Below, in pieces: positions 5,340-45,991 of a stretch of 64,000 bases of DNA (the first letter of the stretch is position 1; every line of letters starts with the position of its first letter). The notes under the pieces are model-generated. The model saw only the letters and a program-made list of their open reading frames with translations. It ran no database searches and was not told the origin of the DNA. The position numbers were made by a program, and so were the translations under genes. The DNA comes from a candidate division WOR-3 bacterium (GTDB taxonomy: Bacteria; Hydrothermota; Tepidihabitantia; SM23-42; JAOAFX01), in contig CBFGJP010000001.1 of the NCBI GenBank assembly GCA_965649105.1, positions 14,464-78,463 of the forward strand, given 5' to 3'.

Positions 5340-5996
5340 TTATTTCTCTTCCCAGCCTTCTTTCCCCACAAGCGGAACAAAGGTACATTCAAAAAGTTCC
5401 TTTCTTGTTATTACCCCTTTATGTTTTTTTATTACATTCAAGGTCTGAAAATATTCGCCACCGATTGGAATCACCAATCTCCCTTTATCCGCCAACTGGT
5501 CAATCAATGCCCTGGGCGTTTCTGGAGCGCCTGCTGTAACAAGTATTCCATCATAAGGTGCATAATCAGGCCAGCCCACACTACCATCACCGATCAAAAA
5601 ATTAATATTATTGAATCCAAGTTCATTAAGAATCTTTCTTGCGCGAAAACTCAATTCAGAAATTCTTTCAATTGTAAAAACCCGATTACACAGTAGCGCA
5701 AGTATTGCAGTCTGATAACCCGAACCAGTGCCAATTTCCAATACCGATTCATTTCCCTTTAATTCCAGCAATTCCGTCATCACTGCCACCATATATGGCT
5801 GGCTTATCGTCTGGCCATTACCAATCGGTAGCGGATAATCATTATACGCCTGATGATAATAAGTTTTATCAACAAACGAATGGCGGGGAACACGCATCAT
5901 TGCATCAATTACCCTTTCATCTTTTACGCCGCGGGCAATAATCTGTTCCTTGACCATCCGCTCCCTTTCCACCCGCCATTCTATAACCTCAATCAC
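5340..5996 (-). CDS. pcm: protein-L-isoaspartate O-methyltransferase
   Basis: SAM-binding motif [16 protein letters not shown]. Conserved PIMT N-terminus. GTG start in the ORF track; the true start may be the internal Met (MVKEQ...). Confidence 0.8.
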
Positions 5997-9264: not shown

Positions 9265-10419
9265 TTACTCTACTATAATGCCAAATGTTTCGGTCTCTGT
9301 CACATCGGTGATTTCAACGGTCTTCAACTCTCTCTCCATACAGGTTTGGCTGATATTAACCCTTATGTAATTATCGGTCAAACCTTTAATCGTCCCTCTT
9401 TTCTTTTCAATGATAACACCAATCTTTTTACCCATAAGTGTCTGCCGGAATTTATAATTTTTTTCAATGATAAATTTTTTAAGCATCCAGAATCTTTTTT
9501 TCTTTTCTGCGAGATTCACCGGGTCACCAAATTCATAAGCCTTGGTTATATTTCTTGGTGAATAAGTAAAAATATGAAGGTGAGTTATGGGTGAATTGGT
9601 GATTAGATCATAGGTGTTTTTGAATTCTATTTCTTTCTCTCCAGGGAAACCAACGATGACATCCGCTCCGATTGCAACATCAGAAAAATTTTTTGTAAGA
9701 AGTTCAAAGATATTCTTAAGATGATTAGAATCATACTGGCGCCCCATTAGAGATAGAATTCTATCATCCCCGCTCTGGATGGGAATATGAAAATGTCTGC
9801 AAACGGGCAAATCCTTAAGACAGGAGAGCAATTCTCTGTTTATGAAATTCGGTTCAAGAGAGGACAATCTTAACCGCGGCAGGTTTGGTGAATTTGCTAA
9901 TCCTTTAAAAAGCTCCATTAACGAAGCACCGATATCCATACCATAAAGCCCGATATTTGCACCAACCAGCACAATTTCATTAAAACCCAGGCTCTTTGCC
10001 CATTCAATCTCTTTTTTGATTAAATCTATAGATTTACTTATGATTTTTTTTCGCAACTTTGACACTACACAGAATGTGCAAGGTTGATTGCAACCGTCCT
10101 CAATCTTTAAAAAATAGCGGGATTTTTTTGGTGCCGGGTATATACCTTCAATAATCTTGTTCCGTTCTTCGTTATCAATCTTTTCATACCCTGCAAAGAG
10201 TTCGGGTTTAAATTGTACCAGACATCCGGTTATAATTATCTTTTTATCTGAGAAATCCCGCTGTGCCTGTCTGAATTTTTTCAGGGATTTTACTTCTGCC
10301 TCATGGGTAACACAACAGGTATTGACAATGACAACATCGTCATCTTTGTGATATTTTTCGGAGAGACAATAGCCTTCGTATTGATTCAGTTTGCAACCGA
10401 CATTGAATAGAATTGCCAA
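9265..10419 (-). CDS. mtaB: MtaB-like tRNA methylthiotransferase (radical SAM MTTase paralog)
   Basis: N-terminal VGCKLNQYE (MtaB-type signature). Radical SAM CTFCVVSKLRK. TRAM-like C-terminus. Directly abuts miaB. Confidence 0.65.
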   Translation of the reverse strand: MAILFNVGCKLNQYEGYCLSEKYHKDDDVVIVNTCCVTHEAEVKSLKKFRQAQRDFSDKKIIITGCLVQFKPELFAGYEKIDNEERNKIIEGIYPAPKKSRYFLKIEDGCNQPCTFCVVSKLRKKIISKSIDLIKKEIEWAKSLGFNEIVLVGANIGLYGMDIGASLMELFKGLANSPNLPRLRLSSLEPNFINRELLSCLKDLPVCRHFHIPIQSGDDRILSLMGRQYDSNHLKNIFELLTKNFSDVAIGADVIVGFPGEKEIEFKNTYDLITNSPITHLHIFTYSPRNITKAYEFGDPVNLAEKKKRFWMLKKFIIEKNYKFRQTLMGKKIGVIIEKKRGTIKGLTDNYIRVNISQTCMERELKTVEITDVTETETFGIIVE

Positions 10420-12174: not shown

Positions 12175-14310
12175 TTACACTTTGTCAATCCGTAATGAGA
12201 GTTGAAATAATCCGAGACCCACGATAAAATTCAGGATTATAAATAAAACAGAAGTATATAATATCCCAAGTATTGGGATGAAAATCAAGGCAGTAATCAA
12301 TGCCCCGAAACTTGCGCCCAAAAGATCAATCCCATAAAGGATACCCGACTTTTTTTCAAAAAATATGTCTATTACCAATGGGAAATGTAAACCATTTAAA
12401 AATCCCCCGGCTAATAAAAGAATGGCAATGATATAATTTATAAACTCCACCTTCGTAAAAGTACAAATAAAAATTATTAAAAAATAAATGCCTATGGTTA
12501 TTTGAATAGTCGATAAAAAGTTCAGCTTTTTCTGAAGGGTATCTATTTTTCTAAATATTCTCATCTTAATAAAAAACAAAGTTCCCATTGCAAGTCCCAG
12601 CATGAATAAACCTATAATAATACCTATCCAGTTATAAACATATCCATAAAATACTTGAAAGAGAATCAAAAGTACTATCTCAGATGAAATGCCTGCGACA
12701 CCGGTGGTAAATATTGAGAGATAAATAAGCGTTTTGCGATACCAGCAGAAAAGAATGGGAATCAATATTAATAAAAATAAACCCGGATGCATATTGAAGA
12801 GTTTTAAAAATAATTTTTTAACAAATCCTGAAGAAATACTACCCCATAGTAGCACATTGAAATAATAACATACAGGCTTTAAATCGTTGTTAATATAAGA
12901 CTTCGTTCTTTCGATACACTGCTTTATATATCCAATTTTTTCCTCAGTAAGATTGTAATCAAAAAAATAGTTATTTACGTAAAGAAGATTAAGATTTCTG
13001 TCCCTGATATTTTTCTTCAAAATTTCTCTAATTCCAACTTCAATTTCGTAGTCCAGTCCAATATATGTGGCTTTTGATAACGGTAATACATAAACTTTTT
13101 TGAAAACCCTTTCCAATGTATTCTTGATTGTGCCTAAAAATTGGCTATAAATCGGGCTGAAAATATCCGGTGTATAATTGACTCTAATACAGAATATCCC
13201 ACCCTGATTAAGCCTGCCTTTAGATTCCTGGAAGAATTCTAATGTATAATATCTATTAAGATTTGCATTTACCGGATCAGGCAGATTAATAATAATACAA
13301 TCAAATTTTTCTTTGGTATTTTTGATATAGTATCGACCATCGCCGATAATTACATTTAATCTATTATCAAAAATTTGAGAACCAATAAATTTTTTTGAGA
13401 TTTCAATAATCTTGGGATCGAGTTCCAGATAATTCAATTTCTGAATCGATGGATGTTTGAAAATCTCTTGTATGCCACCACCCAAACCACCGCCAATAAG
13501 CAGAACACTTTCAGGATTCTTGTGGATTAACAGCGGATAATGAACCGCCTCTTCCGAGGCATAAAAATCAGGGTACGCAAAGTCAAAAACGCCGTTTGAA
13601 TAAAAGTTGATCTGATCATCCGATTTTGTTAATGTGATATTTCCGTATTTTGATTCAAAGACACCAATAATATTTTGCCCCGGCATCTGCACTTTTTTTA
13701 ACTTAAACTCTATCGAGTTTATAGCCAGAAATAAAAATAAGGGAAGCACGGACAATAACAGGTAAATCTTTTTTCTAATACATAAATAACTGGCGAATAT
13801 TAATAACGAAATGAGCAAAATAAAGATACCCGATGGGGGGATGAAAGATAATAAAACGAAGGATAATATAATACCACCAAAAACAGCACCAAAACTTTCA
13901 AAAAAATACACCCTTTGTGGTCTTATAATTTCAGTAGCAGCAGGAAATAGGGCACCAAAGATGATACAGAGTGGACAAAGCGTAATAAACGCAATAATTA
14001 TTATCTTGTATAAATCAATAACCTCACCAAAGTTTATAGAGAAGATCGCAGGGGCATTCCTTATGAATATAAAAGAGCATACCAAAAACAGTGCGGTTAA
14101 AAAAATAAGATTTGCATAATTTCGCGCCGGGTTATCTCTTAAATTCAATTTTGAATATATGAAACTTCCCAACCCGGTCAACAAAAGCCAGAGAAATAGC
14201 ACAATACCTGAAATCAATTCATTGCCCGAAAAAAATGCGAGCATTTCGCGGATGATCATTGTTTGACTCATAACTGCCGCCATACCCGATATAAAAATTG
14301 CAATGTGCAC
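12175..14310 (-). CDS. fused polytopic-membrane / spermidine-synthase-like (polyamine aminopropyltransferase family) protein
   Basis: 711 aa. Multiple TM helices at both ends. Central PABS-like domain (LLIGGGLGGGIQEI...LELDPKII...GDGRYYI...DCIIINLPDP). Confidence 0.6.
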   Translation of the reverse strand: MHIAIFISGMAAVMSQTMIIREMLAFFSGNELISGIVLFLWLLLTGLGSFIYSKLNLRDNPARNYANLIFLTALFLVCSFIFIRNAPAIFSINFGEVIDLYKIIIIAFITLCPLCIIFGALFPAATEIIRPQRVYFFESFGAVFGGIILSFVLLSFIPPSGIFILLISLLIFASYLCIRKKIYLLLSVLPLFLFLAINSIEFKLKKVQMPGQNIIGVFESKYGNITLTKSDDQINFYSNGVFDFAYPDFYASEEAVHYPLLIHKNPESVLLIGGGLGGGIQEIFKHPSIQKLNYLELDPKIIEISKKFIGSQIFDNRLNVIIGDGRYYIKNTKEKFDCIIINLPDPVNANLNRYYTLEFFQESKGRLNQGGIFCIRVNYTPDIFSPIYSQFLGTIKNTLERVFKKVYVLPLSKATYIGLDYEIEVGIREILKKNIRDRNLNLLYVNNYFFDYNLTEEKIGYIKQCIERTKSYINNDLKPVCYYFNVLLWGSISSGFVKKLFLKLFNMHPGLFLLILIPILFCWYRKTLIYLSIFTTGVAGISSEIVLLILFQVFYGYVYNWIGIIIGLFMLGLAMGTLFFIKMRIFRKIDTLQKKLNFLSTIQITIGIYFLIIFICTFTKVEFINYIIAILLLAGGFLNGLHFPLVIDIFFEKKSGILYGIDLLGASFGALITALIFIPILGILYTSVLFIILNFIVGLGLFQLSLRIDKV

Positions 14311-14353: not shown

Positions 14354-14381
14354 TTGACTCTACATTTTTTTTGCGTAAAAT
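14354..14381 (+). promoter_or_regulatory. promoter TTGACT-N16-TAAAAT upstream of the glutaredoxin-like gene / lar region
   Basis: TTGACT 14354..14359, TAAAAT 14376..14381, followed by AAGGAGG RBS and ATG at 14400. Confidence 0.55.
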
Positions 14382-14399
14382 AAAAAACAAGGAGGCCCA

Positions 14400-14666
14400 A
14401 TGAAAAAAATTTATATTTTTGGTCGACAAACCTGTCAGGTTTGTAAGGATACCTATGAGAAATTTTGTTATTTTAAAGAAAAAAAGGGGTTTAAGGCACC
14501 GATTGAATATATTGATATGGATACGGTTGATGGTATGGCAGAGGGTGCATTTTATGAAGTCGCTGACATTCCAACAATTATTATATTTGAAAACGATCAA
14601 GAAATTGTGCGTTGGTCAAAAAAACCACCGGTCAGTGAAGAATTTCTACCGTATTTGTTAAAATAA
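14400..14666 (+). CDS. glutaredoxin/thioredoxin-fold protein (CxxC)
   Basis: 88 aa. CQVC redox motif near N-terminus. NrdH/glutaredoxin-like size. Confidence 0.5.
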   Translation: MKKIYIFGRQTCQVCKDTYEKFCYFKEKKGFKAPIEYIDMDTVDGMAEGAFYEVADIPTIIIFENDQEIVRWSKKPPVSEEFLPYLLK

Positions 14667-14685
14667 ATTCTGTAATTTAAACTGT

Positions 14686-15489
14686 ATGGAAGAAATTCTC
14701 CAAGCAAAGCAGAAAAAGATTGAAAAGTTAAAAGAAATTTTAAAGAAATTTCCGGGCGTGGTAGTTGCCTTCTCTGGTGGTGTTGACTCAACATTTCTTT
14801 TAAAAATGGCGGTAGAAATATTTAAGGACCAAGTTATTGCAGTAACCGCCACTTCACCTCTTTATCCTGAAGCCGAAATCAAGCAGGCAAGAAAGATTGC
14901 AAAACTATTGAATGTTAAACATATCATCATCGGCTCAAATGAACTTATGAATAAGTATTTTAAAAATAATCCGGTCAATCGTTGCTTTCATTGCAAGGTT
15001 GGATTGTTTAAAAAATTAAAAAAAATTGCACAAAAATGTGGATTTATTGTTGTTGAGGCAAGTAATTATTCTGATCTCAATGATTTCAGACCCGGGCTAA
15101 AGGCAGTAAGAAAACTTGGTATCAAATCGCCATTGATAGAAGCGCGCTTGACAAAAGATGAAATAAGATATTTTGCCAGAATGTTTAAATTGCCGAACTG
15201 GAACAAACCTTCAATGGCTTGCCTTGCCTCAAGAATCCCTTACGGTGTAAAAATAAATAAAAAAATTCTAAAACGCATTGAGCGAGCGGAAGCATTTTTA
15301 AAAAAACTAAAGTTTTCTCAATGCCGGGTACGGGACTACTTTCCGATTGCCCGGATCGAAATCCTACCCAATGAATTTTCCCGAATACTTAAGGATAGAA
15401 CACAAATTATTAGATTTTTCAAAAGAATCGGCTACAAATATATTACACTCGATTTGGATGGCTATAAAACCGGCAGTATGAATTTATGA
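14686..15489 (+). CDS. larE: LarE-type PP-loop ATP pyrophosphatase (sulfur transferase of nickel-pincer cofactor biosynthesis)
   Basis: PP-loop AFSGGVDS. LarE-like blocks YRPGLKA, NWNK, CLASRIPYG (Cys at the sacrificial-Cys position) and YITLDLDGYKTGSMN (cf. YVTLDLGGFRSGRMN). Extra CxxC (NRCFHCK). Confidence 0.7.
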   Translation: MEEILQAKQKKIEKLKEILKKFPGVVVAFSGGVDSTFLLKMAVEIFKDQVIAVTATSPLYPEAEIKQARKIAKLLNVKHIIIGSNELMNKYFKNNPVNRCFHCKVGLFKKLKKIAQKCGFIVVEASNYSDLNDFRPGLKAVRKLGIKSPLIEARLTKDEIRYFARMFKLPNWNKPSMACLASRIPYGVKINKKILKRIERAEAFLKKLKFSQCRVRDYFPIARIEILPNEFSRILKDRTQIIRFFKRIGYKYITLDLDGYKTGSMNL

Positions 15490-16574
15490 ACTCCTTGAAA
15501 ACCATAGCCAAGACATTTTTCAAAATCGGACTCCTTGGTTTTGGTGGTGGTCCCGGGATGCTTGCGCTATTAAGGTCTGAATGTGTTAGAAAAAAGAAAC
15601 TCATCTGTGATGACGAATTAACAACCGCGGTCGCCATCGGACAGATGCTTCCCGGTCCATTTGTCCCTAATTATTGTGAATATATCGGATATTGTCTTTC
15701 GGGTTTGAAGGGTGCGATTGTAGCGGGAATTTCTTTGCTCCTCCCATCTTTTATTATTATGCTTATTCTCTCTTATCTCTATTTTGCCTTCCACACACTT
15801 CCGGCAATCAATCAAATATTCAAGGGCGTTGGCGCTGTAATGACAGCAATAATTCTCTGGTCCGGAATTGATATGGGACGGTTGATAATTAACAAGGTCA
15901 ACCGGGTTATTATATTTATTTTTGCCTTTATCCTTTTTCTAATTAGATTTGATCCGGTACTCGTCGTGCTTTTTGCGGGTGGTTTGAATATAATACTTGA
16001 GCATATCAAATCCCCAAAAATTTTTCTTTCCGTACCGATTTTTTTATTTGATATTAAAAAGGCATTTGAATTATTCGGTATCTTTTTAAAAATCGGCGCA
16101 GTGATCTTTGGTGGGGGTTATGCGGCTATTCCATTTATTCAGAATGAAGTTTGCATTTACCGTGACTGGCTTACAACAAGAGAATTCTTTGATGGCTTTG
16201 CACTCGGACAAATAACACCCGGACCGGTGGCGATCACGGCAACTTTCGTTGGCTTCAAAGTCATGGGAATCTTCGGTGCATTGATTTCTACAATTGGAAT
16301 CTTTCTACCATCATTTCTCATGCTCATCATATTAATAAAAATTTACAAAATAATTGAGCAAAACTGTTATGTCCAATCGTTTCTAAATGGAATAAAATCC
16401 GCGGTCGTTGCCGTCTTGCTATCTACCGGGGTTATATTCATTCCGATGCATTGGTTTAATATAGCATATGGATTCTTTGGTATTTTATGCTTGATTATTT
16501 TAGTCACCGTAAAAAAATTAGACCCTTTTATACTCGTCGTTACCGGCATTATCTTTGGGATAATAAAAGGATAG
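15486..16574 (+). CDS. chrA: ChrA-family (chromate ion transporter, CHR) two-domain membrane protein
   Basis: 362 aa. Two CHR repeats, each with GxxxFGGG signature (KIGLLGFGGGPGM and LKIGAVIFGGGYAAIP). Start overlaps larE stop. Confidence 0.65.
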   Translation: MNSLKTIAKTFFKIGLLGFGGGPGMLALLRSECVRKKKLICDDELTTAVAIGQMLPGPFVPNYCEYIGYCLSGLKGAIVAGISLLLPSFIIMLILSYLYFAFHTLPAINQIFKGVGAVMTAIILWSGIDMGRLIINKVNRVIIFIFAFILFLIRFDPVLVVLFAGGLNIILEHIKSPKIFLSVPIFLFDIKKAFELFGIFLKIGAVIFGGGYAAIPFIQNEVCIYRDWLTTREFFDGFALGQITPGPVAITATFVGFKVMGIFGALISTIGIFLPSFLMLIILIKIYKIIEQNCYVQSFLNGIKSAVVAVLLSTGVIFIPMHWFNIAYGFFGILCLIILVTVKKLDPFILVVTGIIFGIIKG

Positions 16575-16593
16575 ATATCCAAACTGCTCCTGG

Positions 16594-16621
16594 ACTTGAC
16601 TTTTATTGTATTTTAACTAAA
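16594..16621 (+). promoter_or_regulatory. promoter TTGACT-N16-TAAAAT upstream of bioY-like gene
   Basis: TTGACT 16594..16599, TAAAAT 16616..16621, then GGAGG RBS and ATG 16639. Confidence 0.55.
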
Positions 16622-16638
16622 ATATTTCAGGAGGTGCA

Positions 16639-17220
16639 ATGAATATCACTAAGACAATTGATTTGTTCAATTATGGAAAAATATTATATTTTGAGTGGTT
16701 AAAAGAGTTACATTGGATCAAAAAATTAGGTCTATCTTTGTTATTTGCTTTGGCTACGGGAATCTTTGCACAAATTAGAATACCGCTCGGATTCACACCG
16801 GTTCCCGTAACGGGACAGGTATTTGTAGTGTTGTTAAGCGGGGTGTTTCTGGGTGGATTTTATGCGGGTATGAGTATGATTTTTTATATAACTCTTGGGG
16901 CAATTGGAATTCCATGGTTCGCGGGATTTCGTGCTGGATTAAATCCTGGTTACACTCTGGGTTATCTTTTAGGATTTATTCCTGCTGCAATCTTTATTGG
17001 ACTGTTTGTTCATAGACATAAAGGTTTTTTCAACCAAATTTTGATAATGATGTTTGGTGTATCAGTAATCTATTTTGTTGGTGCCCTTAATTTTGCCTTT
17101 CTACTCCGGACAAATTTTTTAATAACAATGAAATTGGCTGTCTTACCATTTATACCATTTGATATTATAAAGGCATTGGTCGCTGGGGTTTTATCGCGGG
17201 TGATCATTCCTAATGATTGA
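16639..17220 (+). CDS. bioY: BioY-family S-component membrane transporter
   Basis: 193 aa. TPVPVTGQVF signature (BioY PVP(I/V)T.Q). 5-6 TM helices. Confidence 0.65.
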   Translation: MNITKTIDLFNYGKILYFEWLKELHWIKKLGLSLLFALATGIFAQIRIPLGFTPVPVTGQVFVVLLSGVFLGGFYAGMSMIFYITLGAIGIPWFAGFRAGLNPGYTLGYLLGFIPAAIFIGLFVHRHKGFFNQILIMMFGVSVIYFVGALNFAFLLRTNFLITMKLAVLPFIPFDIIKALVAGVLSRVIIPND

Positions 17221-17235
17221 AGTTTTGATTGCTAT

Positions 17236-18690
17236 ATGTTTAAAATTATTACTAAAATTTTTCTGACAGGAGTTTTAATTATGACACAGAACTGTAATGG
17301 TGGAGAGTATCGCGAATCAATCCATGCTGGCTCCTGGTATCCGGGCAGGGAAAAAGACCTTCAAGAGGTGATAAAGACCTATCTCAAAAATGCCCGAACA
17401 AAGATTTCGGGTGAAATATACGGACTTGTTTCACCTCATGCCGGTTATATGTATTCAGGACCATTTGCAGCATTCTCATATAAACTATTGGAAAATAAAG
17501 AATTTGATGATGTGATAGTAATAGGTCCGAGTCACCGGTATGGATTTTATGGCGTTTCTGTTGATAAAATGGCGGGCAGGAAGACGCCTTTAGGCAAGGT
17601 AGATTTTGATACAGACCTTGCGGATAAAATAATCAAGCAAAACTCAAAGATTATAAAATACGAACCGATGGCACACATTGAAGAGCATTCTGTTGAAATA
17701 CAGATACCATTCCTCCAGATGGTTTTGAAGAAATTCAAACTTATTGAGATTGTTATGGGATCTCATGATTATAAAACCTGTGGTGTACTTGCTGATGCCA
17801 TTGTAAATGCAGCAAAAGATAAGAAATTTTTAATCATTGCGAGTTCCGACCTATCCCATTATCATAATCAGGAGACCGCGGAAAAACTTGATAATCTTGT
17901 GATTGATGCTATAGAAAAATTTGACCCGGAACTTTTATATAAAAGGCTCTCTTCGGACAGTTGCGAGGCATGTGGAGGTGCACCGATAATCACTGCAATG
18001 CTCGTAGTGAAGAAATTAGGTGCAGACAAGGCAAAGGTTTTGATTTATGGAACGAGTGGAAATATCACCGGTGATTATGCTCAGGTCGTTGGTTATCTTT
18101 CAGCAGTTTTTTTTAAGGGAAATGAGCAGAAACATGAAAAAGTTGGGGTTGATCTTGGTTTTAATGAAGAAGAAAAGAAGGTATTAAAGGATATCGCAAG
18201 AAAGACTATCGAAGCGGTGGTTCAAGGTAAAAAAGTTCCTGAGTTTAAAGATGTACCTGAAAAACTGAAAGAACCCTATGGTGTATTTGTGACGCTTACC
18301 AAACACGGAAATTTAAGAGGATGTATCGGTCATATCATTGCGGATGAGCCCCTTTATAAAACATGTGCTGAGATGGCAAAAGCTGCCGCACTCCACGACC
18401 CGCGGTTCAATCCTGTAAATGAAAAAGAACTTCCCGAGATCGAGATTGAGATCTCCGTTCTTACTCCGATGGAGAAAGTTAAGGATTTCAATGATATTGT
18501 TATTGGCAGAGATGGATTGTTTGTTCGTAGAGGCTATTATAGTGGCCTGCTTTTACCCCAGGTGGCAACTGAGTATGGGTGGACTGTTGAGGAATTTTTA
18601 GAACAGACCTGTATGAAGGCCGGGCTTCCCGAAGATGCTTACAAATTGAAGGATACCGAGGTTTATAAATTCTCAGCCCAGATATTTTAG
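17236..18690 (+). CDS. fusion protein: Memo1-like (AmmeMemoRadiSam system protein B) N-terminal domain + AMMECR1 (system protein A) C-terminal domain
   Basis: N-terminal domain has AGSWYPG and VSPHAGYMYSG motifs of the MEMO1/extradiol-dioxygenase-like family. C-terminal about 180 aa has AMMECR1 hallmarks (GVFVTLTKHGNLRGCIGHI ... LLPQVA). Confidence 0.65.
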   Translation: MFKIITKIFLTGVLIMTQNCNGGEYRESIHAGSWYPGREKDLQEVIKTYLKNARTKISGEIYGLVSPHAGYMYSGPFAAFSYKLLENKEFDDVIVIGPSHRYGFYGVSVDKMAGRKTPLGKVDFDTDLADKIIKQNSKIIKYEPMAHIEEHSVEIQIPFLQMVLKKFKLIEIVMGSHDYKTCGVLADAIVNAAKDKKFLIIASSDLSHYHNQETAEKLDNLVIDAIEKFDPELLYKRLSSDSCEACGGAPIITAMLVVKKLGADKAKVLIYGTSGNITGDYAQVVGYLSAVFFKGNEQKHEKVGVDLGFNEEEKKVLKDIARKTIEAVVQGKKVPEFKDVPEKLKEPYGVFVTLTKHGNLRGCIGHIIADEPLYKTCAEMAKAAALHDPRFNPVNEKELPEIEIEISVLTPMEKVKDFNDIVIGRDGLFVRRGYYSGLLLPQVATEYGWTVEEFLEQTCMKAGLPEDAYKLKDTEVYKFSAQIF

Positions 18691-18704
18691 TTAGGAGCGA
18701 TAAC

Positions 18705-19376
18705 ATTAAAAAAAGATTTAGCAAAACAATAAGCGACATCGGGTTTGCAAAATTAGATCTGCACCGAAAAAATAGAAAAGGATTTCCCGAGGTCATCTTA
18801 TGCCAAGGTAAGTCAGAAGAGCAAATAGTGCAATGTGCGTGGCAGATATTTAAAGCCAATAAAAAAGTGCTTTTGACGAGAATTAATCCATCCATTGCCC
18901 GATCGCTTGATAATGAATTTAAATCAGGCAAATATTATTCTGAAGCCAGATTGTATTTTATTGGTAAACAAAAGGAAAAAACAGGTCTGGTAGTTGTAAT
19001 ATCTGCAGGTACCGGAGATATCCCGGTGGCTGAAGAAGCCGCGGTCACCGCTGAAATTATGGGGAGTAATGTTAAAAGAATATATGATGTTGGTGTAGCT
19101 GGGTTGCACAGGCTCTTAAAATTCAAAAACCTGATAAAAAAAGCGCGGGCCCTTGTGGTTGTGGCAGGCATGGACGGTGTTCTTCCCTCAGTTGTTGGTG
19201 GTTTATTCCCGGCACCGGTAATTGCGGTGCCCACAAGCATTGGATATGGGGCGCATTTCAATGGCATTGCATCTTTATTGACAATGTTGAATTCCTGTGC
19301 GCCGGGTGTAGCAGTGGTTAATATTGATAATGGTTTTGGAGCGGGTTATCTTGCGGCAATTATAAATAGTCTATGA
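18705..19376 (+). CDS. larB: LarB (pyridinium-3,5-biscarboxylic acid mononucleotide synthase, PurE-like); start codon uncertain
   Basis: PurE-like core (VVVISAGTGDIPVAEEAAVTAEIMG ... VVAGMDGVLPSVVGG ... VPTSIGYG). LarB-specific N-terminal block GFAKLDLHRKNRKGFPEVI is encoded in frame upstream of the first ATG (18828). No ATG/GTG/TTG between the in-frame stop at 18666 and 18828. AGGAG at 18693 is followed 7 nt later by ATT at 18705. Confidence 0.6.
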   Translation: MKKRFSKTISDIGFAKLDLHRKNRKGFPEVILCQGKSEEQIVQCAWQIFKANKKVLLTRINPSIARSLDNEFKSGKYYSEARLYFIGKQKEKTGLVVVISAGTGDIPVAEEAAVTAEIMGSNVKRIYDVGVAGLHRLLKFKNLIKKARALVVVAGMDGVLPSVVGGLFPAPVIAVPTSIGYGAHFNGIASLLTMLNSCAPGVAVVNIDNGFGAGYLAAIINSL

Positions 19377-20032
19377 TTGTCTTTGATAAAGTCACAAAGA
19401 TTTTCCAGCGAGACTGGGTCGCACTTGACAGCATTTCTTTTGAAATCCAGAAAGGCGAGTTTGTTTTTATTACTGGTCCGACCGGTGCAGGAAAAAGTAC
19501 GGTCCTCAAACTAATCTACAAAGACGAAGAACCAACCAAAGGAACAATTAAAGTTCTTGATTACCATCTTCATTTTTTAAAACGGAATAAATTACCCGAA
19601 TTCCGTCGTAAGATCGGCGTTATTTTTCAGGACTTCAAACTTCTTCAGGACCGGACGGTCGAAGAAAATGTTGCATTTGCCCTGGAGGTCACTGATATTC
19701 CACCCCGGGATTTAAAGAAAAAAGTGTTTGATATTTTAACCTATGTAAAATTAAGTCATAAAAAATTTAATTATCCTTATCAACTTTCTGGTGGCGAGCA
19801 GCAAAAGATCGCAATTGCCCGCGCATTAGTGCGTGATCCCTACATACTGCTTGCCGATGAGCCCACCGGAAATCTGGATTTGAAAAGTTCCCAGGAAGTT
19901 CTTGAAATTCTGCTGGACATCAACTATAAAGGCACCACCGTTCTGATGGCAACACATAATCAATTACTCGTCCGCAAGGCAAAAAAACGTATCATCCATC
20001 TGGAAAATGGAAAAATCGTGTCGGATAAATGA
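19373..20032 (+). CDS. ftsE: cell division ATP-binding protein FtsE
   Basis: Walker A GPTGAGKST, ABC signature LSGGEQQK, Walker B LLADEPTGNLD. ATGA overlap with larB stop. Confidence 0.8.
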   Translation: MIVFDKVTKIFQRDWVALDSISFEIQKGEFVFITGPTGAGKSTVLKLIYKDEEPTKGTIKVLDYHLHFLKRNKLPEFRRKIGVIFQDFKLLQDRTVEENVAFALEVTDIPPRDLKKKVFDILTYVKLSHKKFNYPYQLSGGEQQKIAIARALVRDPYILLADEPTGNLDLKSSQEVLEILLDINYKGTTVLMATHNQLLVRKAKKRIIHLENGKIVSDK

Positions 20033-20044
20033 GAAAGGATTAAT

Positions 20045-20893
20045 ATGGCATTGCGCATTGGCATAAGAGAGGGTTTGAGAACGATAATCAGAAGTCGTTC
20101 TTTATTCATTCTTTCGTTACTTGTCGCCGCGATATCTTTTTATTTGCTATCAATTTTCGGATTGGTAACGGTCAATCTTTATGAAATTGCAAACCTTCTT
20201 GATGAAAAGATTGAAATCATTGCATTCCTTGAAGAACGTGCAGATATCGCTTGGTTAAAAAACAGCATAAACAAGATTAACGGTGTTCAAGAAGTGGTTT
20301 ATGTATCAGCCGAAACCGCATTAAAACAACTGCAGGACGAAGTTGCTGAAACAAAAGAGATAATCCGCATATTTGAAGATAACCCATTACCTGCATCGAT
20401 AAGAATTAAACTCGAGCCTCAATATCGTAATCCAAAAGGATTAGAAGAAATAAGCAAGAAAGTTTTGTTGCTCAAGGGTGTGAAAGATACAATATACGGT
20501 GGAGAACTTGTAGAGCAACTAAAAAAGATAACTAATATTATGCTATTCTTCGATGTCGGCTTATTGATCATCATTACTCTTTCCGTCATATTTGTCATAT
20601 TTCAGACCATTAAACTAACAATCTTTGCCCATGCTACCGAGATTGAAATAATGAAACTCGTTGGTGCAACAGATATATTTATCACCATACCATTTGTGTT
20701 TCAGGGATTGGTCCAGGGTATATTAGGTGGAATCATTGCCTTTATACTGCTTGAAATAACCGTCCGGATTGCATCATCATTTTTCAACATTCCTTTCTTT
20801 CCCAAACTCTTATTCTTTCTGGGCAGCATATTATTCGGAGTGGTATTTGGTATAATAGGTTCAAGTATTGCATTGAGAAGGTTTTTAAAATGA
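20045..20893 (+). CDS. ftsX: cell division permease-like protein FtsX
   Basis: 282 aa. N-terminal TM, periplasmic domain, three C-terminal TMs. Follows ftsE. Confidence 0.75.
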   Translation: MALRIGIREGLRTIIRSRSLFILSLLVAAISFYLLSIFGLVTVNLYEIANLLDEKIEIIAFLEERADIAWLKNSINKINGVQEVVYVSAETALKQLQDEVAETKEIIRIFEDNPLPASIRIKLEPQYRNPKGLEEISKKVLLLKGVKDTIYGGELVEQLKKITNIMLFFDVGLLIIITLSVIFVIFQTIKLTIFAHATEIEIMKLVGATDIFITIPFVFQGLVQGILGGIIAFILLEITVRIASSFFNIPFFPKLLFFLGSILFGVVFGIIGSSIALRRFLK

Positions 20894-22002
20894 CATCCTT
20901 TTTAATATTTTTATGTTTATTTTTACAATTAAATCAAAAACAGAAAGAGCTTGATGACTTAAAGAAACGATTAAGTGAAGTAAGACAGGAAATTAAACAA
21001 CTTGAAAAGGAAAAATCAGGTGCCCTTGCTCGGCTCGAAAAGATAGATGAGGCCATAAATCTTTCCTCAGAGTATATCGAAAAAGTGACTACCCAGGAAT
21101 ACGAAGAAAAGATGCGAGTCTCAGAATTAAATCGTGAAATTGCACGTTTAGAATCAAAAATGAAATTTCAAAAAGAGGAATTGAAAGAAAGATTAATCCG
21201 TCTTTATAAATGGACTCCCTTTTATAAACTGGAGATTTTATTATCATCAAAGTCAATACCTGAGATACTATCAACCTCCTATTACTTACAGATTCTTGCG
21301 AAGCACGACAGCAAATTGTTCTTTGAATTTAAAGATTACTGGACAAAATATCTTGCTGATAAAAAAATGCGTGAGCAACTTATTTCGTTATTAGAAACCC
21401 GGCGGCAAGAAAAGGAACAGGAACTTGAGCAGTTAAATAAAGAAAGGCAGGAAAAAAGAAAAATCCTTGATGAAATAGCAAAACAGGAAAATGAGAAAAA
21501 AAAGATTGAGAAAGAATTGAAAAGTGCACAGCGCAAATTGGAAGATTTGATCGTCTCGCTTCGCAAAAAGAAAGAAAAAGAAGAAGCAAGTGCCAAGAGT
21601 TATTTTGAAATAAACAAAGGTAAATTACCCTGGCCCTGCAGAGGTTCGGTTGGGACAAAATTCGGGAAGGTCATTCATCCAAAGTACAATACAACGACAA
21701 AAAATAATGGAATTGATATATTGAGCAATTATGGAGAAAATGTTTATGCAGTTGCCCAGGGCAAAGTTGTTTATGCGGGGAAATTTATGGGATATGGTGA
21801 CTTGGTTGTAATTGACCACCAGGATGGATTTTATTCACTTTACGGGCATCTTTCCGAGATCCTTGTTAAGGTCGGAGACGAAGTGCCTTTAGGAAGAATA
21901 ATTGGTAGAGTAGGAGAAAGTGGTTCGTTGTCAGGTCCAATGCTACATTTTGAATTAAGAAAAGAAGGCAAACCAGTTGATCCCCTGGTATATCTGGAAT
22001 AG
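20890..22002 (+). CDS. envC: EnvC-like murein hydrolase activator (coiled-coil + degenerate LytM/M23 domain)
   Basis: Long coiled-coil region. C-terminal M23 fold where the Zn-ligand motifs are degenerate (NGIDIL instead of HxGxD; MLHFE instead of HxH). ATGA overlap with ftsX. Confidence 0.65.
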   Translation: MTSFLIFLCLFLQLNQKQKELDDLKKRLSEVRQEIKQLEKEKSGALARLEKIDEAINLSSEYIEKVTTQEYEEKMRVSELNREIARLESKMKFQKEELKERLIRLYKWTPFYKLEILLSSKSIPEILSTSYYLQILAKHDSKLFFEFKDYWTKYLADKKMREQLISLLETRRQEKEQELEQLNKERQEKRKILDEIAKQENEKKKIEKELKSAQRKLEDLIVSLRKKKEKEEASAKSYFEINKGKLPWPCRGSVGTKFGKVIHPKYNTTTKNNGIDILSNYGENVYAVAQGKVVYAGKFMGYGDLVVIDHQDGFYSLYGHLSEILVKVGDEVPLGRIIGRVGESGSLSGPMLHFELRKEGKPVDPLVYLE

Positions 22003-22019: not shown

Positions 22020-22799
22020 TCACATAACTATTTTGGTTGCACTTAAAAGATATGCGGTATGAGTAATTTCTCTTTCTCTTGGCCGAACACCTCTCTCCCT
22101 AACTAAAATCTCCCGTTGCATAATCTCGCAAACTTTTATTCTAACGAAATTATGTGCATGAAGTGATTCTACGGTTTTTTTTATCTGCTCAACATTCGGA
22201 CTCCATGATACCAGGTGGTGTCCACTTTTTAATACATCAAATGCCCGGGGCACAATTTCCCATGGTTCAGGAACATCGATAAATACTGCATCAACATTTC
22301 TATGAATAAAACCTTCAATTGCCACATCCCTGAGAATGAATTCGACTTTGCTTTTATATTTGCCCTTCTCCACATTTCGCTTTGCATTTGCAAGAAATTC
22401 TTCGTTCCTTTCGTAAGAATAGACAATGCCGTCGGGGGCAACAATCTTTGATAAAAATAAGGTCAATGCACCACTACCGGTTCCCACCTCAATGACTTTT
22501 GAACCCGGTCCAACAGAAGTTTCAAATAATAGATAACCAATGTCCTTTGGGTAGACAATTGTAGTTTTTCTTTTTATTTTCAATATTAAATCGCTCGTGG
22601 TGGGCTTAAGACAATAAAAATTTCTGCCCAGATGTGTTTTACCAGTAAAACCAAACTCTTTATTTATGATTTCATCAACCTTTATATCACCAAAATCTGT
22701 TGATAATTTCATTTTAGGGATTGCCTGGATAAGAAATTGCCGTTTTTCATCAAGGTATATAAGGACCAATTCACCTTGTCCAATCAAATTTTCATTCAT
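22020..22799 (-). CDS. trmI: tRNA (adenine58-N1)-methyltransferase TrmI/Gcd14 family
   Basis: SAM motif VIEVGTGSGALTLFLS and Gcd14-like architecture. 259 aa. Confidence 0.7.
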   Translation of the reverse strand: MNENLIGQGELVLIYLDEKRQFLIQAIPKMKLSTDFGDIKVDEIINKEFGFTGKTHLGRNFYCLKPTTSDLILKIKRKTTIVYPKDIGYLLFETSVGPGSKVIEVGTGSGALTLFLSKIVAPDGIVYSYERNEEFLANAKRNVEKGKYKSKVEFILRDVAIEGFIHRNVDAVFIDVPEPWEIVPRAFDVLKSGHHLVSWSPNVEQIKKTVESLHAHNFVRIKVCEIMQREILVRERGVRPREREITHTAYLLSATKIVM

Positions 22800-22886: not shown

Positions 22887-25322
22887 ATGGGTATATATTT
22901 GGTTCTATTTTTCTTGTCTGGTTTTTCTGCTTTGATTTATGAGATTACCTGGACAAGATTACTCTTGCTTGCATTTGGTTCAACAACCTTAGCAAATGCC
23001 CTGGTCGTATCAGCATTTATGCTGGGACTTGGTCTTGGCGGATTATATTATGGTTCCTATGTCGATCGGGTCAACAATTCTAAGAAATTATTTTCATATC
23101 TGCAGTTAGGAATTGGCTTATCTTCCTTTTTATTACTGCTTCTCATTAATCAGTTACCAAATTTTTATAAAGGCATATCAAAAAATATACATTTAAACCC
23201 ATCAATTTCATCAACCATTATATTCATTTTAACCTTCGCAGTCTTATTTATTCCTACATTTTTAATGGGCGGGACATTTCCAGTAATTACAAAATGTTAT
23301 GTTCAGGATGAGAATAAAATCAAAAATGGAATAGGATTATTATACGGATTCAATACTTTCGGAGGTACGATTGGTGCATTATTAACCGGATTCTTTTTTA
23401 TCAGAACATTGGGGCTTTCTTCGACCCAGTTGATCGCAATTTTAATAAATTTAATAATCGGCATTTTGGTGTATCTTTTCATTGCAAAAATGTCAACGGA
23501 AAATAGAATTTCAAAAACTGTTCCCCAGGAATCAAAAAAAGATAATTTAAACAAAATAAAAAAATATATGCCACTCATTGCCGGGCTAACAGGGTTTGCT
23601 GGGCTTGCCTGTGAAATTTTATGGATTCGTGCATTATCAATATTCCTTATCAATTCCACCTACACCTTTACTATGATTATTATTGTCTTTCTGTCGGGAA
23701 TTTTTATCGGTAGTATTGTATTTACCAGATTATCAAAAAAATCAAATATCCATAATGTTTTTGCATTAGTGCAAATTCTGACAGGATTATATATCATAAC
23801 TGGCAGTTTATTTTTAAATAAACTACCAGCATTACTATTTTTGTTCTCTAGTATCTTTGAAATACCTACCCTTAGAATGTTCCTACCCGCATTACTTCTT
23901 TCTTGGGTTATAGTCTTTGTACCCGCAATATTTATGGGGATAAGTTTTCCGCTAATTTGTTCTCTATACGAACAGAAAATACCGAACCTTGGTAACTATC
24001 TGGGTAATATTTATTTTTTCAATACAATTGGCAGTGCACTTGGTTCGCTAATTGCTGGTGTGCTCTTAATCCAATATATCGGAGTCATAAGGGGATTGGT
24101 AACTGTTGCTTTTATAAATTTACTGATTGGTTTCTTTTTTACGCTTTCTTTGAAGAAAAAATTTGTATATATCATTATTTTTGTTTGGGCAATCGCCAGC
24201 TTTTTTTATTCAATGCAAAATAAATTAATACTTCCGCCTTCCCTTTACCAGTCACCGAGCAGACAACACCGTGTTTTATTTTATCAAGAAACATTGGATG
24301 GGACTATAATTGTGAGTGAAGACCGTTCCACGGGCATAAGGTCCTGCTATGTAAATAACAGTGCGGTAATCGGCACAACCTATGATGCATTGAAGGTTGT
24401 AAAAATGCTCGGGCATCTTCCGTTCATATTCAATCCTGATGCAAAAGAGATATTGGTCATTGGTTTTGGAATTGGTATAACAACTTCAGCAATTGCACGG
24501 TATAATGTGAACCAAATAGATTGTGTTGAAATTTGTCCGGGCTTGCGTACAGCAGCAAAATATTTTGCAAATTTTAATAACTATATTTTTAATAATCCCG
24601 TAGTAAATTTTATTAACGCTGATGGCAGGAATTTTTTGCTATTAACAAAAAAAAGATACGATATCATTTCCTGCGACCCAACACATCCTATATTGGGAAG
24701 CGGAAGTCTTTATACTAAAGAGTTTTTCATATTGTGCAGGGAGCATCTATCGGATAATGGAGCAGTCTGTCAATATCTGCCCCTTCATAAACTGAGCCCG
24801 GATCAATTTAAATCTTTGATAAAAACCTTCGCTGATGTCTTCCCGCATACTTCAATCTGGCTTGGTTATTCGCATGGTATCCTTGTGGGCACAAATCATT
24901 CCCAAAAGATAATCTTTGAATCATTAAAAAATTTAAACGATGACCTGCTCAAAGATCCATATCTTCTTGCCGTCTCATATCTTCTTGATACAGAGGCAAT
25001 TAGACATTTCACCTCGGGTGCAAAGATAAATACCGATAACCAACCCAGGTTAGAATTTTTTACTCCCTTAAGTTTGAGGAATGAAAACTGGGAGCATAAT
25101 ATAAAATCAGTAATGGAACACAGAATTAGTATTGATAAAATCGTTATTGGCATTGAGGATTTAGAAAAATTGCAACGATATTTGCAGGGACAGAAGTATT
25201 TTATTGAAGGGCTCATATATCAAAACCGAAGAGACCGACAGTCAATGATCGAGGCGTTTAAAAAATCATTGGCAGTAAATCAAGAAAATAACGAAATAAG
25301 GCTATTACTTCAATCGCAATAA
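22887..25322 (+). CDS. fused polytopic-membrane / spermidine-synthase-like protein with C-terminal TPR region (paralog of 12175..14310)
   Basis: 811 aa. About 12 TM helices in the N-terminal half. PABS-like domain (ILVIGFGIGITTSAIA...IDCVEICP...FINADGRNF...DIISCDPTHP). TPR-like C-terminus. Confidence 0.6.
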   Translation: MGIYLVLFFLSGFSALIYEITWTRLLLLAFGSTTLANALVVSAFMLGLGLGGLYYGSYVDRVNNSKKLFSYLQLGIGLSSFLLLLLINQLPNFYKGISKNIHLNPSISSTIIFILTFAVLFIPTFLMGGTFPVITKCYVQDENKIKNGIGLLYGFNTFGGTIGALLTGFFFIRTLGLSSTQLIAILINLIIGILVYLFIAKMSTENRISKTVPQESKKDNLNKIKKYMPLIAGLTGFAGLACEILWIRALSIFLINSTYTFTMIIIVFLSGIFIGSIVFTRLSKKSNIHNVFALVQILTGLYIITGSLFLNKLPALLFLFSSIFEIPTLRMFLPALLLSWVIVFVPAIFMGISFPLICSLYEQKIPNLGNYLGNIYFFNTIGSALGSLIAGVLLIQYIGVIRGLVTVAFINLLIGFFFTLSLKKKFVYIIIFVWAIASFFYSMQNKLILPPSLYQSPSRQHRVLFYQETLDGTIIVSEDRSTGIRSCYVNNSAVIGTTYDALKVVKMLGHLPFIFNPDAKEILVIGFGIGITTSAIARYNVNQIDCVEICPGLRTAAKYFANFNNYIFNNPVVNFINADGRNFLLLTKKRYDIISCDPTHPILGSGSLYTKEFFILCREHLSDNGAVCQYLPLHKLSPDQFKSLIKTFADVFPHTSIWLGYSHGILVGTNHSQKIIFESLKNLNDDLLKDPYLLAVSYLLDTEAIRHFTSGAKINTDNQPRLEFFTPLSLRNENWEHNIKSVMEHRISIDKIVIGIEDLEKLQRYLQGQKYFIEGLIYQNRRDRQSMIEAFKKSLAVNQENNEIRLLLQSQ

Positions 25323-26891: not shown

Positions 26892-28062
26892 TTAACCAAA
26901 TATTATTAAAACAGCAATGCCAATAATTAAGGTTATTATCGTAAAAGGTAAACCGAGTTTTAAATATTCAAAAAATCCCACCCTTACGCCTTTTTTTCTG
27001 CTTATTCAAAAACAATTATATCGGCAACCAAACCAATGACCGTAAGATTTCCGGCAAGCGTTGAAGACATAGCCAGCGTAAGCCAAGCAATTTTAGAATT
27101 AACTAAGCCTGCAAAGAAATGCGAGAACAGGATCACAGCTGGCGTATTGCTTATGATATTAGATAAAACTGTGGAGCCCACCGTCAAATTAAAAATTTGG
27201 GAAAATTTACCATTGGAAAGATAAATTTTTACATATGCAAAGATTGATAAAGTAATACCTGATTTCTCCGCGCCCCGCATTACAATAAATAAACCGGCAA
27301 AGAATAGAAGCAACTGCCAGTCCATCTCTTCTAATACCTTTCTCGGCTTATTGACACCAAACAGAATTCGAAAACATGTAATGGTGATTGCGACATTCTG
27401 CGGGCTATAACCCAAACACAAAAAAATCAGCAGCAAAACCAAGTTTATAAATGATGCGATAAAAAGTCTTTTCGGAACAACGATTTTATTTTCATTAGAT
27501 TCAATTTTTATCTTTTTGCCTGCAAAATCATTGTGATAAACAAGGCGGATTAGTTAAAAATTTACCAATAATCCTATGATTGAAATCGATGAAAGGATTC
27601 TTAGAAACTCCAAAAAAGGAGTTTGGGGAATAAAGACCGATAAACATATTTTGTGGATTCCCGATGATCGTCATTGTGCTACCGATATTTGAAGAGGTTG
27701 CCAATGCAATTAGATAAGGAATCGGATTTAATTTGACTTTTCTCGTAATCTTTAAAACAATTGGTGTAAACAGCAGGGAAATGGTATCATTCATAAAGAG
27801 GCTGGCTGTAATTCCTGATAAAACTATTAGAAAAAACAAAAGCCCAGAAGCACTTTTTGCCCTGCGCAATATCCACCTTTCAACTGTTTCAAAAAAACCA
27901 GATAATTCTATCTACGCGATAATAATCATCATCCTTAGAATGAACAATATTATATCCAGGTCGATCGCTGCATATGCTTCTTTCAATGAAATAACACCAA
28001 AAAACCATCGCCACGGCCCCTAAAAGTGCACTTGCTGGTCTATTAATATGAATTCCTGGCAT
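26892..28062 (-). pseudogene. ArsB/NhaD-superfamily anion permease (CitMHS/YbiR-like) disrupted by multiple frameshifts
   Basis: Homologous segments lie in different frames. MPGIHINRPASALLGAVAMVF (from ATG 28062), GVISLKEAYAAIDLDIILF, ORF 27528..27869 (…IGSTMTIIGNPQNMFIG…), ORF 27002..27442 (…WQLLLFFAGLFIV…NLTVIGLVADIIV) and terminal GFFEYLKLGLPFTIITLIIGIAVLIIFG* (stop 26892). At least 5 frame changes, one at a T7 homopolymer (26991..26997). Confidence 0.7.
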
Positions 28063-45610: not shown

Positions 45611-45991
45611 ATGGACAATAAGTGTTTTGCCTGTGGTACTGATAATCCCATCGGATTACATCTCGATATTCGTGAAAATCCAAATGGAGTGTATGCAAAG
45701 ATAAAACTAAGCCCGATATATCAAGGTTATCAGCAGGTGATACATGGCGGCATTGTTTCAACGATTCTTGACGAAATGGCAGTTTGGGCATCGTTCAAAA
45801 AAGGCAAAAAGGCTGTTACTGCCGAACTGAATGTGCGGATAAAAAAACCAATGCTTTCAGATACAGAATATATTGCTATCGGACGGGTGATAAATACAAA
45901 GTATAATCTCGTAATTGCGCAGGCAGAGATAAAAGACTCAAATGAAAAGGTTATTGCCTGTGCCGATTTGAAATTGATAGAGATTGATTAA
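45611..45991 (+). CDS. hotdog-fold acyl-CoA thioesterase (PaaI/YbgC-like)
   Basis: QQVIHGGIVSTILDEMAVWA motif. Start chosen at internal Met after the LolA-like stop. Confidence 0.6.
   Translation: MDNKCFACGTDNPIGLHLDIRENPNGVYAKIKLSPIYQGYQQVIHGGIVSTILDEMAVWASFKKGKKAVTAELNVRIKKPMLSDTEYIAIGRVINTKYNLVIAQAEIKDSNEKVIACADLKLIEID

Follow-up and report, generated by a model that had tools for sequence, protein, structure and literature searches.

A 64 kb stretch of the genome of a hot-spring-type WOR-3 bacterium (hereafter the window, meaning the whole stretch analysed) carries in its array region, at 14354-22002, nine open reading frames (ORFs) on the same (+) strand, among them larE and larB of the pathway for the nickel-pincer nucleotide (NPN). 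Organometallic cofactors of nickel are very few, and NPN is among them. LarB carboxylates and hydrolyses NaAD (nicotinic acid adenine dinucleotide) to a pyridinium biscarboxylic acid mononucleotide (P2CMN), and LarE converts P2CMN to the corresponding bisthiocarboxylic acid (P2TMN). The chemistry as published runs in three steps, from NaAD through P2CMN and P2TMN to NPN (PMC13524815). Profile searches gave the order of the array as a thioredoxin-like CxxC protein, LarE, ChrA, BioY, a fusion of Memo and AMMECR1, LarB, FtsE, FtsX, and an EnvC-like protein, and they upheld every gene identity that an initial annotation of this DNA had proposed, the LarE and LarB families included. We refer to the genes for the 87-88-residue CxxC protein, LarE, and ChrA as module A, and to (bioY)-fusion-larB, ancestrally followed by larC, as module B. 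The features of the region are as follows.

14354-14381, + strand: promoter-like site P1, TTGACT-16-TAAAAT, 5' of module A (promoter scan)
14400-14666, + strand: thioredoxin/glutaredoxin-like CxxC protein, 88 residues, gene 1 of module A; weak, sub-gathering Pfam matches to Glrx-like and Thioredoxin
14686-15489, + strand: LarE, PP-loop sulfur insertase of the CxxC-C subclass; TIGR00268, 301.6 bits (cut-off 150)
15486-16574, + strand: ChrA-family two-domain CHR transporter; PF02417 twice, TIGR00937 at 235.8 bits (cut-off 171.7)
16596-16623, + strand: promoter-like site P2, TTGACT-16-TAAAAT, in the chrA-bioY gap (promoter scan)
16639-17220, + strand: BioY-family membrane protein of the ECF (energy-coupling factor) S-component type, gene 1 of module B; PF02632, 109.6 bits (gathering 25)
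17281-18690, + strand (ORF open from ATG 17236): fusion of Memo (AmmeMemoRadiSam protein B) and AMMECR1 (protein A); TIGR04336 at 282 bits (cut-off 26) and TIGR04335 at 193.4 bits (cut-off 99)
18694-18698, + strand: Shine-Dalgarno sequence AGGAG for the non-canonical larB start (direct reading)
18705-19376, + strand: LarB, NaAD carboxylase/hydrolase (P2CMN synthase), with an apparent ATT start; NF033503, 284.1 bits (cut-off 175)
19373-20032, + strand: FtsE; TIGR02673, 280.3 bits (cut-off 264.85)
20045-20893, + strand: FtsX; Pfam FtsX_ECD and FtsX domains
20890-22002, + strand: EnvC-like coiled-coil protein with a degenerate LytM (M23) domain; PF01551, 111 bits

The closest protein matches, 87-89% identical, came from metagenome-assembled genomes (MAGs) labelled 'candidate division WOR-3'. 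A comparison that took in about 100 related loci, which carry L-numbers below, gives good support to a descriptive and historical account in which two conserved modules, each with its own promoter, were joined by two relocations, one of which brought a block of genes onto ftsEX-envC. The same gene order recurs in independent assemblies, for the whole array in L003/L004, L006, L007, and L091 and for a shorter stretch in L005, which rules out an assembly chimera. The co-localisation is conserved, and it is previously undescribed in the literature searched, where no paper was found to bring LarB together with either AMMECR1 or Memo, or a chromate transporter together with LarE.

The trio of module A was found in all 11 distinct larE contexts of WOR-3 type (the window, L003/4, L006, L007/91, L092, L088, L086/87, L096, L097, L099, and L100), flanked upstream by at least three kinds of gene, encoding an M48 peptidase, a transglutaminase-core protein, or a spermidine-synthase-like protein; the metagenome scan with LarE itself yielded only 5 loci. 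The four larE contexts from outside WOR-3 (L093-L095 and Carboxydothermus) all lack module A and have the classical order larE-larB-larC without chrA, so that chrA follows larE in 11 of 11 contexts of the one kind and 0 of 4 of the other. Only in the window and its closest relatives (L003/4, L006, L007/L091) does module A stand directly upstream of bioY.

The LarE of this module has an invariant P-loop, SGGVDS (in AFSGGVDST), and when aligned to Lactiplantibacillus plantarum LarE (5udq) and to 8cnz it has alanine in the column of L. plantarum Cys176. The cysteines of NRC[FY]xCK and MACLA make up a CxxC-C triad that is invariant in 6 orthologues. In Thermotoga LarE, such a triad binds a [4Fe-4S] cluster and permits catalytic rather than sacrificial sulfur transfer (PMC9283937). 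By motif, the WOR-3 LarE belongs to the same [4Fe-4S] type, and since the triad is invariant and the Cys176 column is alanine, the NCBIfam label 'sacrificial' probably does not apply to it. The CxxC mini-protein encoded in front of larE is likewise well conserved, with C-x-[VI]-C-K-D and a C-terminal KKPP[VI]SEEFLPYL invariant in 6 orthologues. ChrA has two CHR domains, PF02417 matching in two stretches, and scores as an ordinary member of its family.

A scan with the fusion alignment, using one genome per GTDB species, returned 80 loci; WOR-3/Stahlbacteria/TA06 loci, with a fusion identity of 60-89%, number 33 with the window included, and 48 loci come from other phyla. Wherever a WOR-3-clade locus extended downstream of the fusion, larB followed it in 30 of 31 species, 29 times as the next gene and once at +2 behind a spurious ORF. 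The next gene after larB is larC in 20 of those 30 loci, and ftsE in the subclade of the window. In 19 of the 33 loci a bioY gene precedes the fusion, in position -1 except for one case at -2; in about 40% it is absent or replaced by a DUF498 protein. The initial annotation had allowed for a chance juxtaposition of these genes; the CxxC protein before and chrA after larE, together with larB after the fusion, persist across the WOR-3 clade through rearrangements, and chance does not account for that.

Both modules carry a promoter-like site that travels with them. The P1 motif cTTGACT...TA(A/G)AAT is kept 5' of the thioredoxin-like gene in the window, L003/4, L006, L007/91, L092, L088, and L096 despite differing flanks; L097 has a similar site farther upstream, and L086/L087 have none. 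At P2, the -35 element, the spacer ATTTTA, and the -10 element are kept upstream of bioY across the subclade loci whatever gene precedes, although L012 and L013 have variants. The P2 -10 element is overlapped by TATTTTA-N2-TAAAATA (16609-16624), a perfect inverted repeat that may be an operator for some regulator; all subclade genomes keep its spacer arm, ATTTTA, and the remaining spacer is variable. Each module would in this way possess a conserved sigma-70-like promoter of its own.

These sites bear on the claim, made in the initial annotation from the tight gene junctions, that the array is co-transcribed. Direct reading confirmed ATGA stop/start overlaps at larE/chrA, larB/ftsE, and ftsX/envC, so the overlaps are real. 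A single unit is nevertheless too simple: because a promoter-like site lies in the chrA-bioY gap, two promoters or more must serve the array, which is thus not just a single operon, and overlaps are usual in this compact genome, where 26 of the 47 same-strand pairs in the window (55%), unrelated genes included, overlap or lie at most 20 nucleotides (nt) apart. The gap between bioY and the fusion, given earlier as 15 nt, is likelier to be 60 nt, since the fusion starts more probably at ATG 17281 than at ATG 17236: an AGGAG lies at 17269-73 in front of the former, and the resulting product of 469 residues has the length of most homologues. Rfam searches at the gathering threshold, covering the window and the long fusion-larB gaps of L020, L023, L025, and L032, returned only tRNAs and one rRNA and no riboswitch or other RNA element.

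The position of larB differs within the clade in a way that reveals how the array arose. Deep WOR-3 lineages are syntenic, with the order lpxC, lpxD, fusion, larB, larC, a gene for an ECF (extracytoplasmic function) sigma factor, an anti-sigma gene, and an RNase J-like gene. The order bioY-fusion-larB-ftsE-ftsX-envC is confined to a subclade with at least 74% fusion identity (L003, L006-L013). In a genome of this subclade, GCA_049700315.1 (the genome of L011 and L088), the locus L089 has larC, the ECF sigma gene, and the anti-sigma gene without larB, and in GCA_039802125.1 (L090) lpxC-lpxD stands straight before larC-sigma-antisigma, with 84 nt between lpxD and larC. Both LarC1 and LarC2 domains were confirmed in the larC of these sister genomes. 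By its gene order, the L090 site is the ancestral locus minus the three-gene block, and since the old larC site in the sister genomes is without bioY-fusion-larB, these three genes must have moved together. The sigma/anti-sigma pair is attached to larC in deep and derived WOR-3 lineages alike, and at both sister loci (L089 10001-11720; L090 10001-11720) larC overlaps the start of the ECF sigma gene by 29 nt, the putative anti-sigma gene coming next.

The comparison thus supports the following sequence of events for the subclade. In its ancestor, bioY-fusion-larB was excised from between lpxD and larC and landed directly upstream of ftsEX-envC, with larC staying behind beside the ECF sigma/anti-sigma pair. 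The next change was the loss of the larB ATG, the gene apparently now starting at AUU or AUA behind a conserved AGGAG. Module A was placed just upstream of the bioY promoter last, in the closest relatives of the window only.

The retention of larC at its old site changes how the array is to be read. The initial annotation had described a partial cluster lacking larC, larA, and the radical-SAM gene of the AmmeMemoRadiSam system, and the absence of these genes from the window was confirmed: Pfam scans of all window ORFs of at least 110 residues found no larC, no larA, no candidate of the aldo-keto reductase (AKR) or ornithine cyclodeaminase (OCD) type, and no TIGR04337 radical-SAM gene, and tblastn with LarC, TIGR04337, and LarA probes gave no match in the window. 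The LarA probe, an L. plantarum sequence validated against 5huq (945 bits), also had no match in the roughly 95 loci fetched at that stage. Sister genomes within this subclade, however, keep a bona fide larC where the ancestor had it, and the cluster is no remnant of a partial pathway; because larC was retained there, the pathway is complete but dispersed in the two sister genomes, and presumably so in the genome of the window. To judge from their sequences, larE and larB are genuine NPN biosynthesis genes. In the window, an L-aspartate-oxidase-like flavoprotein (38860-40389, +; FAD_binding_2 and Succ_DH_flav_C) is encoded at a distance of 17 kb from the array, to which its position is probably unrelated; as NadB, if that is what it is, it would catalyse the first step towards NaAD, the substrate of LarB.

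The larB start was resolved in the same comparison. The initial annotation had placed it at about 18705, which is correct, and the codon there is ATT, 6 nt past the AGGAG. From 18705, the profile NF033503 is matched over model positions 1-208 and the protein aligns to residues 31-245 of L. plantarum LarB (7mj0). The longest larB ORF with an ATG, GTG, or TTG start begins at GTG 18828 (182 residues), matches only 31-208 of the model, and would delete the conserved N-terminal segment GFAKLDLHRKNRKGFPEVILCQGK. In the window and most subclade genomes, no ATG, GTG, or TTG was found upstream of the conserved motif GFAKLDLHR..GFPEV, and in most subclade genomes (L003, L006-L012, L091) an in-frame ATT or ATA lies 5-9 nt after an AGGAG; larB of L013 and of all deeper lineages starts with ATG. 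It appears, then, that larB uses a weak AUU/AUA start, possibly with help from the fusion ORF, which terminates 14 nt upstream. A programmed -1 frameshift from the fusion ORF into larB (the frames overlap at 18669-18690) was considered and rejected, since there is no slippery heptamer, the AGGAG and an in-frame Ile codon suffice, and deep lineages have a separate, ATG-started larB. Automatic gene models are shortened or shifted at this gene (in the window to 182 residues with a GTG start, in L003 to a TTG that lies four codons further on), and the AUU/AUA start corrects the larB model for a whole group of MAGs.

Downstream of larB, FtsX has as its best NCBIfam matches FtsX_Gneg and FtsX_Gpos, below the equivalog cut-offs. 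The EnvC-like protein has a long, charged, coiled-coil-like N-terminal region and a LytM domain in which the metal ligands are replaced (NNGID for HxxxD and MLH for HxH). Since ftsE follows larB only in L003 and L006-L013, with larC following larB elsewhere, the linkage of cofactor genes to the divisome that the initial annotation had found unusual is a derived trait of one subclade, and nothing points to a functional tie; ftsEX-envC would merely ride on the same transcript as larB.

This bears on a trafficking function, the reading first put forward for the array, in which the BioY-like and ChrA-like proteins would move a pyridinium or metal cofactor and the link to ftsEX-envC would be functional. 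Both transporters are conserved beside lar genes, larB and ftsE overlap, and the Pfam scans found neither an ECF A nor an ECF T component for BioY in the window. Solitary BioY proteins are known. With ftsEX-envC behind larB in a single subclade and larC elsewhere, with BioY missing or exchanged for DUF498 in so many WOR-3 loci, with both transporters scoring as ordinary family members, and with nothing that hints at an altered substrate, we regard this reading as very improbable.

The window holds further genes besides these. Two protein-L-isoaspartate O-methyltransferase-like genes lie at 5340-5996 (-) and 22020-22799 (-); the second runs towards envC, and only 17 nt part the two stop codons. 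A CitMHS/ArsB-type transporter gene at 27002-27869 (-) is split into two ORFs (146 and 113 residues) and corresponds to one 409-residue gene in L003; a frameshift, a pseudogene, or a sequencing error is the probable cause.

We next consider the fusion. Its Memo part keeps the residues of the MEMO1 metal site in the PHAGY, GPSH, SSDxxH, and CG motifs, the His, His, Asp/His, and Cys aligning to H49, H81, D189/H192, and C244 of MEMO1. These residue names follow in part PMC9477392. In the AMMECR1 part, the RGCIG and DPRF motifs are invariant, in agreement with the motifs RGChG and DxR-aromatic defined in PMC2034487. The same study predicts that AMMECR1, a RAGNYA fold that has a catalytic Cys, binds nucleotides and modifies a base or nucleotide, and the fusion of AMMECR1 with Memo (A-B) was already known from it (PMC2034487). 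When WOR-3 fusions were compared with others, a dozen positions were conserved differently in each group, among them C20, D110, R115, E171, Q212, R237, T273, and C377; these clade-specific residues may reflect a change of function or plain phylogenetic signal.

Outside the WOR-3 clade, the fusion keeps other company. In 13 of the 48 loci of other phyla (Desulfobacterota, Latescibacterota, Zixibacteria, Ignavibacteriales, an archaeon) a TIGR04337 radical-SAM partner adjoins it, and lar genes or BioY were found within 10 kb of it in none of the 48. Conversely, tblastn with the TIGR04337 protein of L039 gave no match in the window or in about 45 WOR-3-clade loci, among them the 33 that hold the fusion, which were covered together with flanks of up to 10 kb. 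The three radical-SAM genes of the window were set aside as candidate partners, since all are of the MiaB/RimO type with a UPF0004 domain; two are tandem methylthiotransferase genes about 4 kb upstream of the array (7987-9264, -; 9265-10419, -) and the third lies at 45984-47219 (+). The TIGR04337 protein of L039 (11516-12670, Desulfobacterales) has a twin-arginine-like signal at its N terminus (TRRDLIKKG...), a surprise in a radical-SAM enzyme of the cytoplasm.

Two other families recur beside these genes. A DUF362 protein (PF04015, 72.5 bits) adjoins the fusion or the radical-SAM pair in L076, L077, L081, and L085, which lie outside WOR-3 in different phyla, one of them in an archaeon; the DUF362 neighbour in L077 starts with a signal-like RRRRFF peptide. 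DUF362 is an outgroup of the LarA superfamily in PMC11770544, and a remote tie between AmmeMemoRadiSam and LarA-like folds by way of DUF362 is conceivable. Two large membrane-fused spermidine-synthase-like proteins of the NF037959 type flank the whole array of the window (12175-14310, -; 22887-25322, +), and the same family adjoins AmmeMemoRadiSam genes in Latescibacterota (where L059 has it on either side), Desulfacinum, and Ignavibacteriales (L059, L078, L083, L085). It seems to be a second recurring neighbour of the fusion, apparently undescribed.

The results reported above lead us to favour an explanation in which the array is an evolutionary composite and not a single dedicated pathway operon; taken as a whole, its functional part included, we hold this explanation to be true with a confidence a little better than even. 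We hypothesize that module A would be a working sulfur-insertion unit, in which the CxxC protein would be a redox or sulfur-relay partner of the Fe-S LarE and the ChrA-type oxyanion transporter would be coupled somehow to sulfur insertion. The Memo/AMMECR1 fusion would be co-expressed with larB from P2 and would most likely act on or use a pyridinium nucleotide of the pathway; AMMECR1 has the nucleotide-binding fold and catalytic Cys described above, and Memo is a metal-binding dioxygenase-like domain. A real coupling is favoured by the boundaries of module A, which stayed constant through several rearrangements, by the movement of module B as a block, by the later joining of module A to module B, by the absence of a radical-SAM partner in the neighbourhood of any WOR-3 fusion, by the nucleotide binding predicted for AMMECR1 (PMC2034487), and by the recent recognition of NPN enzymes through adjacency (PMC13524815).

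Several observations weigh against this explanation. The association of the fusion with lar genes is limited to one clade, and outside it the radical-SAM partner and the absence of lar genes and BioY set the pattern. Because the neighbourhood in deep lineages is wholly syntenic, much of the 30 of 31 reflects shared descent and not repeated selection. In deep lineages, 16 to about 320 nt separate the fusion from larB, and co-transcription of the two is therefore not universal; in L014 bioY-fusion stands without larB downstream. Only one translocation kept the fusion and larB together, and the same event parted larB from its proven partner larC. Tight coupling implies no shared function here, because more than half of the same-strand pairs are tight and larC overlaps the ECF sigma gene as well. 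CHR, BioY, Memo, and AMMECR1 are tied to NPN by gene position; that Memo/AMMECR1, BioY, or ChrA also has a function in the cofactor pathway is a plausible hypothesis, and one not previously reported.

The same observations can be explained by descent only, in which case Memo/AMMECR1, BioY, ChrA, and the CxxC protein would be unrelated to NPN and would have kept an ancestral order in a genome that is compact and slow to rearrange; the fusion would work with a radical-SAM partner encoded elsewhere, BioY would import biotin, and ChrA would handle chromate or a sulfate-like anion. Deep-lineage synteny around module B takes in clearly unrelated genes, the sigma factor gene is joined to larC just as tightly, over half of the same-strand pairs in the window overlap or nearly do so, all family scores are ordinary, and outside WOR-3 the fusion pairs with TIGR04337 and never with Lar genes. 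Descent does not so readily explain that module A is unchanged in its three genes and retains its promoter amid three or more kinds of flank, in 11 of 11 sampled genomes, or that bioY-fusion-larB moved as one block. Module A later landed beside module B, out of about 2000 possible positions, which looks like selection for clustering, and no TIGR04337 gene was found within 10 kb of the 33 WOR-3 fusion loci or in the window. We consider descent alone a possible account that deserves serious weight, short of the confidence we place in the composite.

A bolder reading makes the fusion a new NPN-dependent enzyme, or one that tailors P2CMN or P2TMN, replacing LarA as client of the cofactor in the manner of the AKR-type NphT and ornithine cyclodeaminase. 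Two non-LarA NPN enzymes, AKR-type NphT and an NPAD-dependent ornithine cyclodeaminase, were indeed discovered through adjacency to larBCE (PMC13524815), and in WOR-3 the fusion is always beside larB(-larC), has no radical-SAM partner nearby, carries clade-specific conserved residues, and includes a predicted nucleotide-binding fold. No LarA, AKR, or OCD client was found in the window or in any fetched WOR-3 locus, an absence that covers just these sequences. That the fusion binds NPN is, however, a proposal from gene position and fold, its clade-specific residues may be phylogenetic signal, the association is clade-limited, and larC was left behind in the subclade of the window, which would be odd for a tight three-part unit. 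We think this reading unlikely. Equally doubtful is the fullest version of the functional argument, in which the WOR-3 fusion left its radical-SAM partner and joined the NPN system, as an NPN-using enzyme or as a modifier or carrier of the intermediate made by LarB, with the CxxC protein and ChrA as sulfur and redox supply for the Fe-S LarE.

The arrangement matters beyond this locus. The conservation of AMMECR1 and Memo extends from archaea to humans, whose homologues are linked to disease; we know of no reaction for either. A clade that fixes AMMECR1/Memo beside a nucleotide-modifying enzyme points to a concrete substrate class, and if the fusion did belong to the NPN system it would give the first biochemical handle on both proteins. 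In all, the WOR-3 arrangement nominates four partner families, namely Memo, AMMECR1, the CHR transporter, and the CxxC mini-thioredoxin. Even if the link is only positional, the locus shows the break-up and re-assembly of a pathway operon, and it illustrates that calling a cluster partial from a single window can mislead. It has been clear since 2025 that enzymes unrelated to LarA use NPN and can be found beside larBCE (PMC13524815). The published adjacency screen accepted only loci in which larB and larE lie no more than 20 ORFs from larC (PMC13524815), and since larE is far from larC in WOR-3, the arrangement described here would escape it.

Compared with known systems, the array combines familiar parts in an unfamiliar order. 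As in Escherichia coli FtsEX-EnvC, three contiguous genes encode the FtsE ATPase, an FtsX with an extracellular domain, and a coiled-coil protein whose LytM domain is degenerate and devoid of metal ligands; the WOR-3 set differs in that it is predicted to be translationally coupled to larB, is apparently driven from the bioY promoter, and is specific to a subclade. The AmmeMemoRadiSam system (TIGR04335/TIGR04336/TIGR04337) is matched by the A and B parts of the fusion, which score far above the cut-offs and have intact active-site motifs, whereas the WOR-3 loci have no adjoining radical-SAM partner and larB(-larC) takes its place. The WOR-3 LarE shares the invariant SGGxDS P-loop and CxxC-C triad of Thermotoga maritima LarE (PMC9283937), a likeness read from sequence; its fixed neighbours, the CxxC mini-thioredoxin and the CHR transporter, are undescribed for the T. 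maritima enzyme.

The closest relation is to the classical NPN clusters, larA-E of L. plantarum and larE-larB-larC of Carboxydothermus hydrogenoformans. LarB and LarE are clear orthologues of the proteins encoded there, LarC is present in the lineage, and the same three-step chemistry is expected. In WOR-3, however, the lar genes are split over three loci instead of one, no larA or nickel transporter is near them, each has a conserved non-lar partner, and larB has a non-ATG start. With regard to the NPN enzymes other than LarA, NphT and ornithine cyclodeaminase, the fusion differs in its fold (Memo/LigB-like plus RAGNYA), in having no defined His/Lys motif for NPN binding, in its restriction to one clade, and in being a candidate proposed from gene context. 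What it shares with them is the pattern by which they were recognised: a family unrelated to LarA that stands persistently beside NPN genes, with no larA near.

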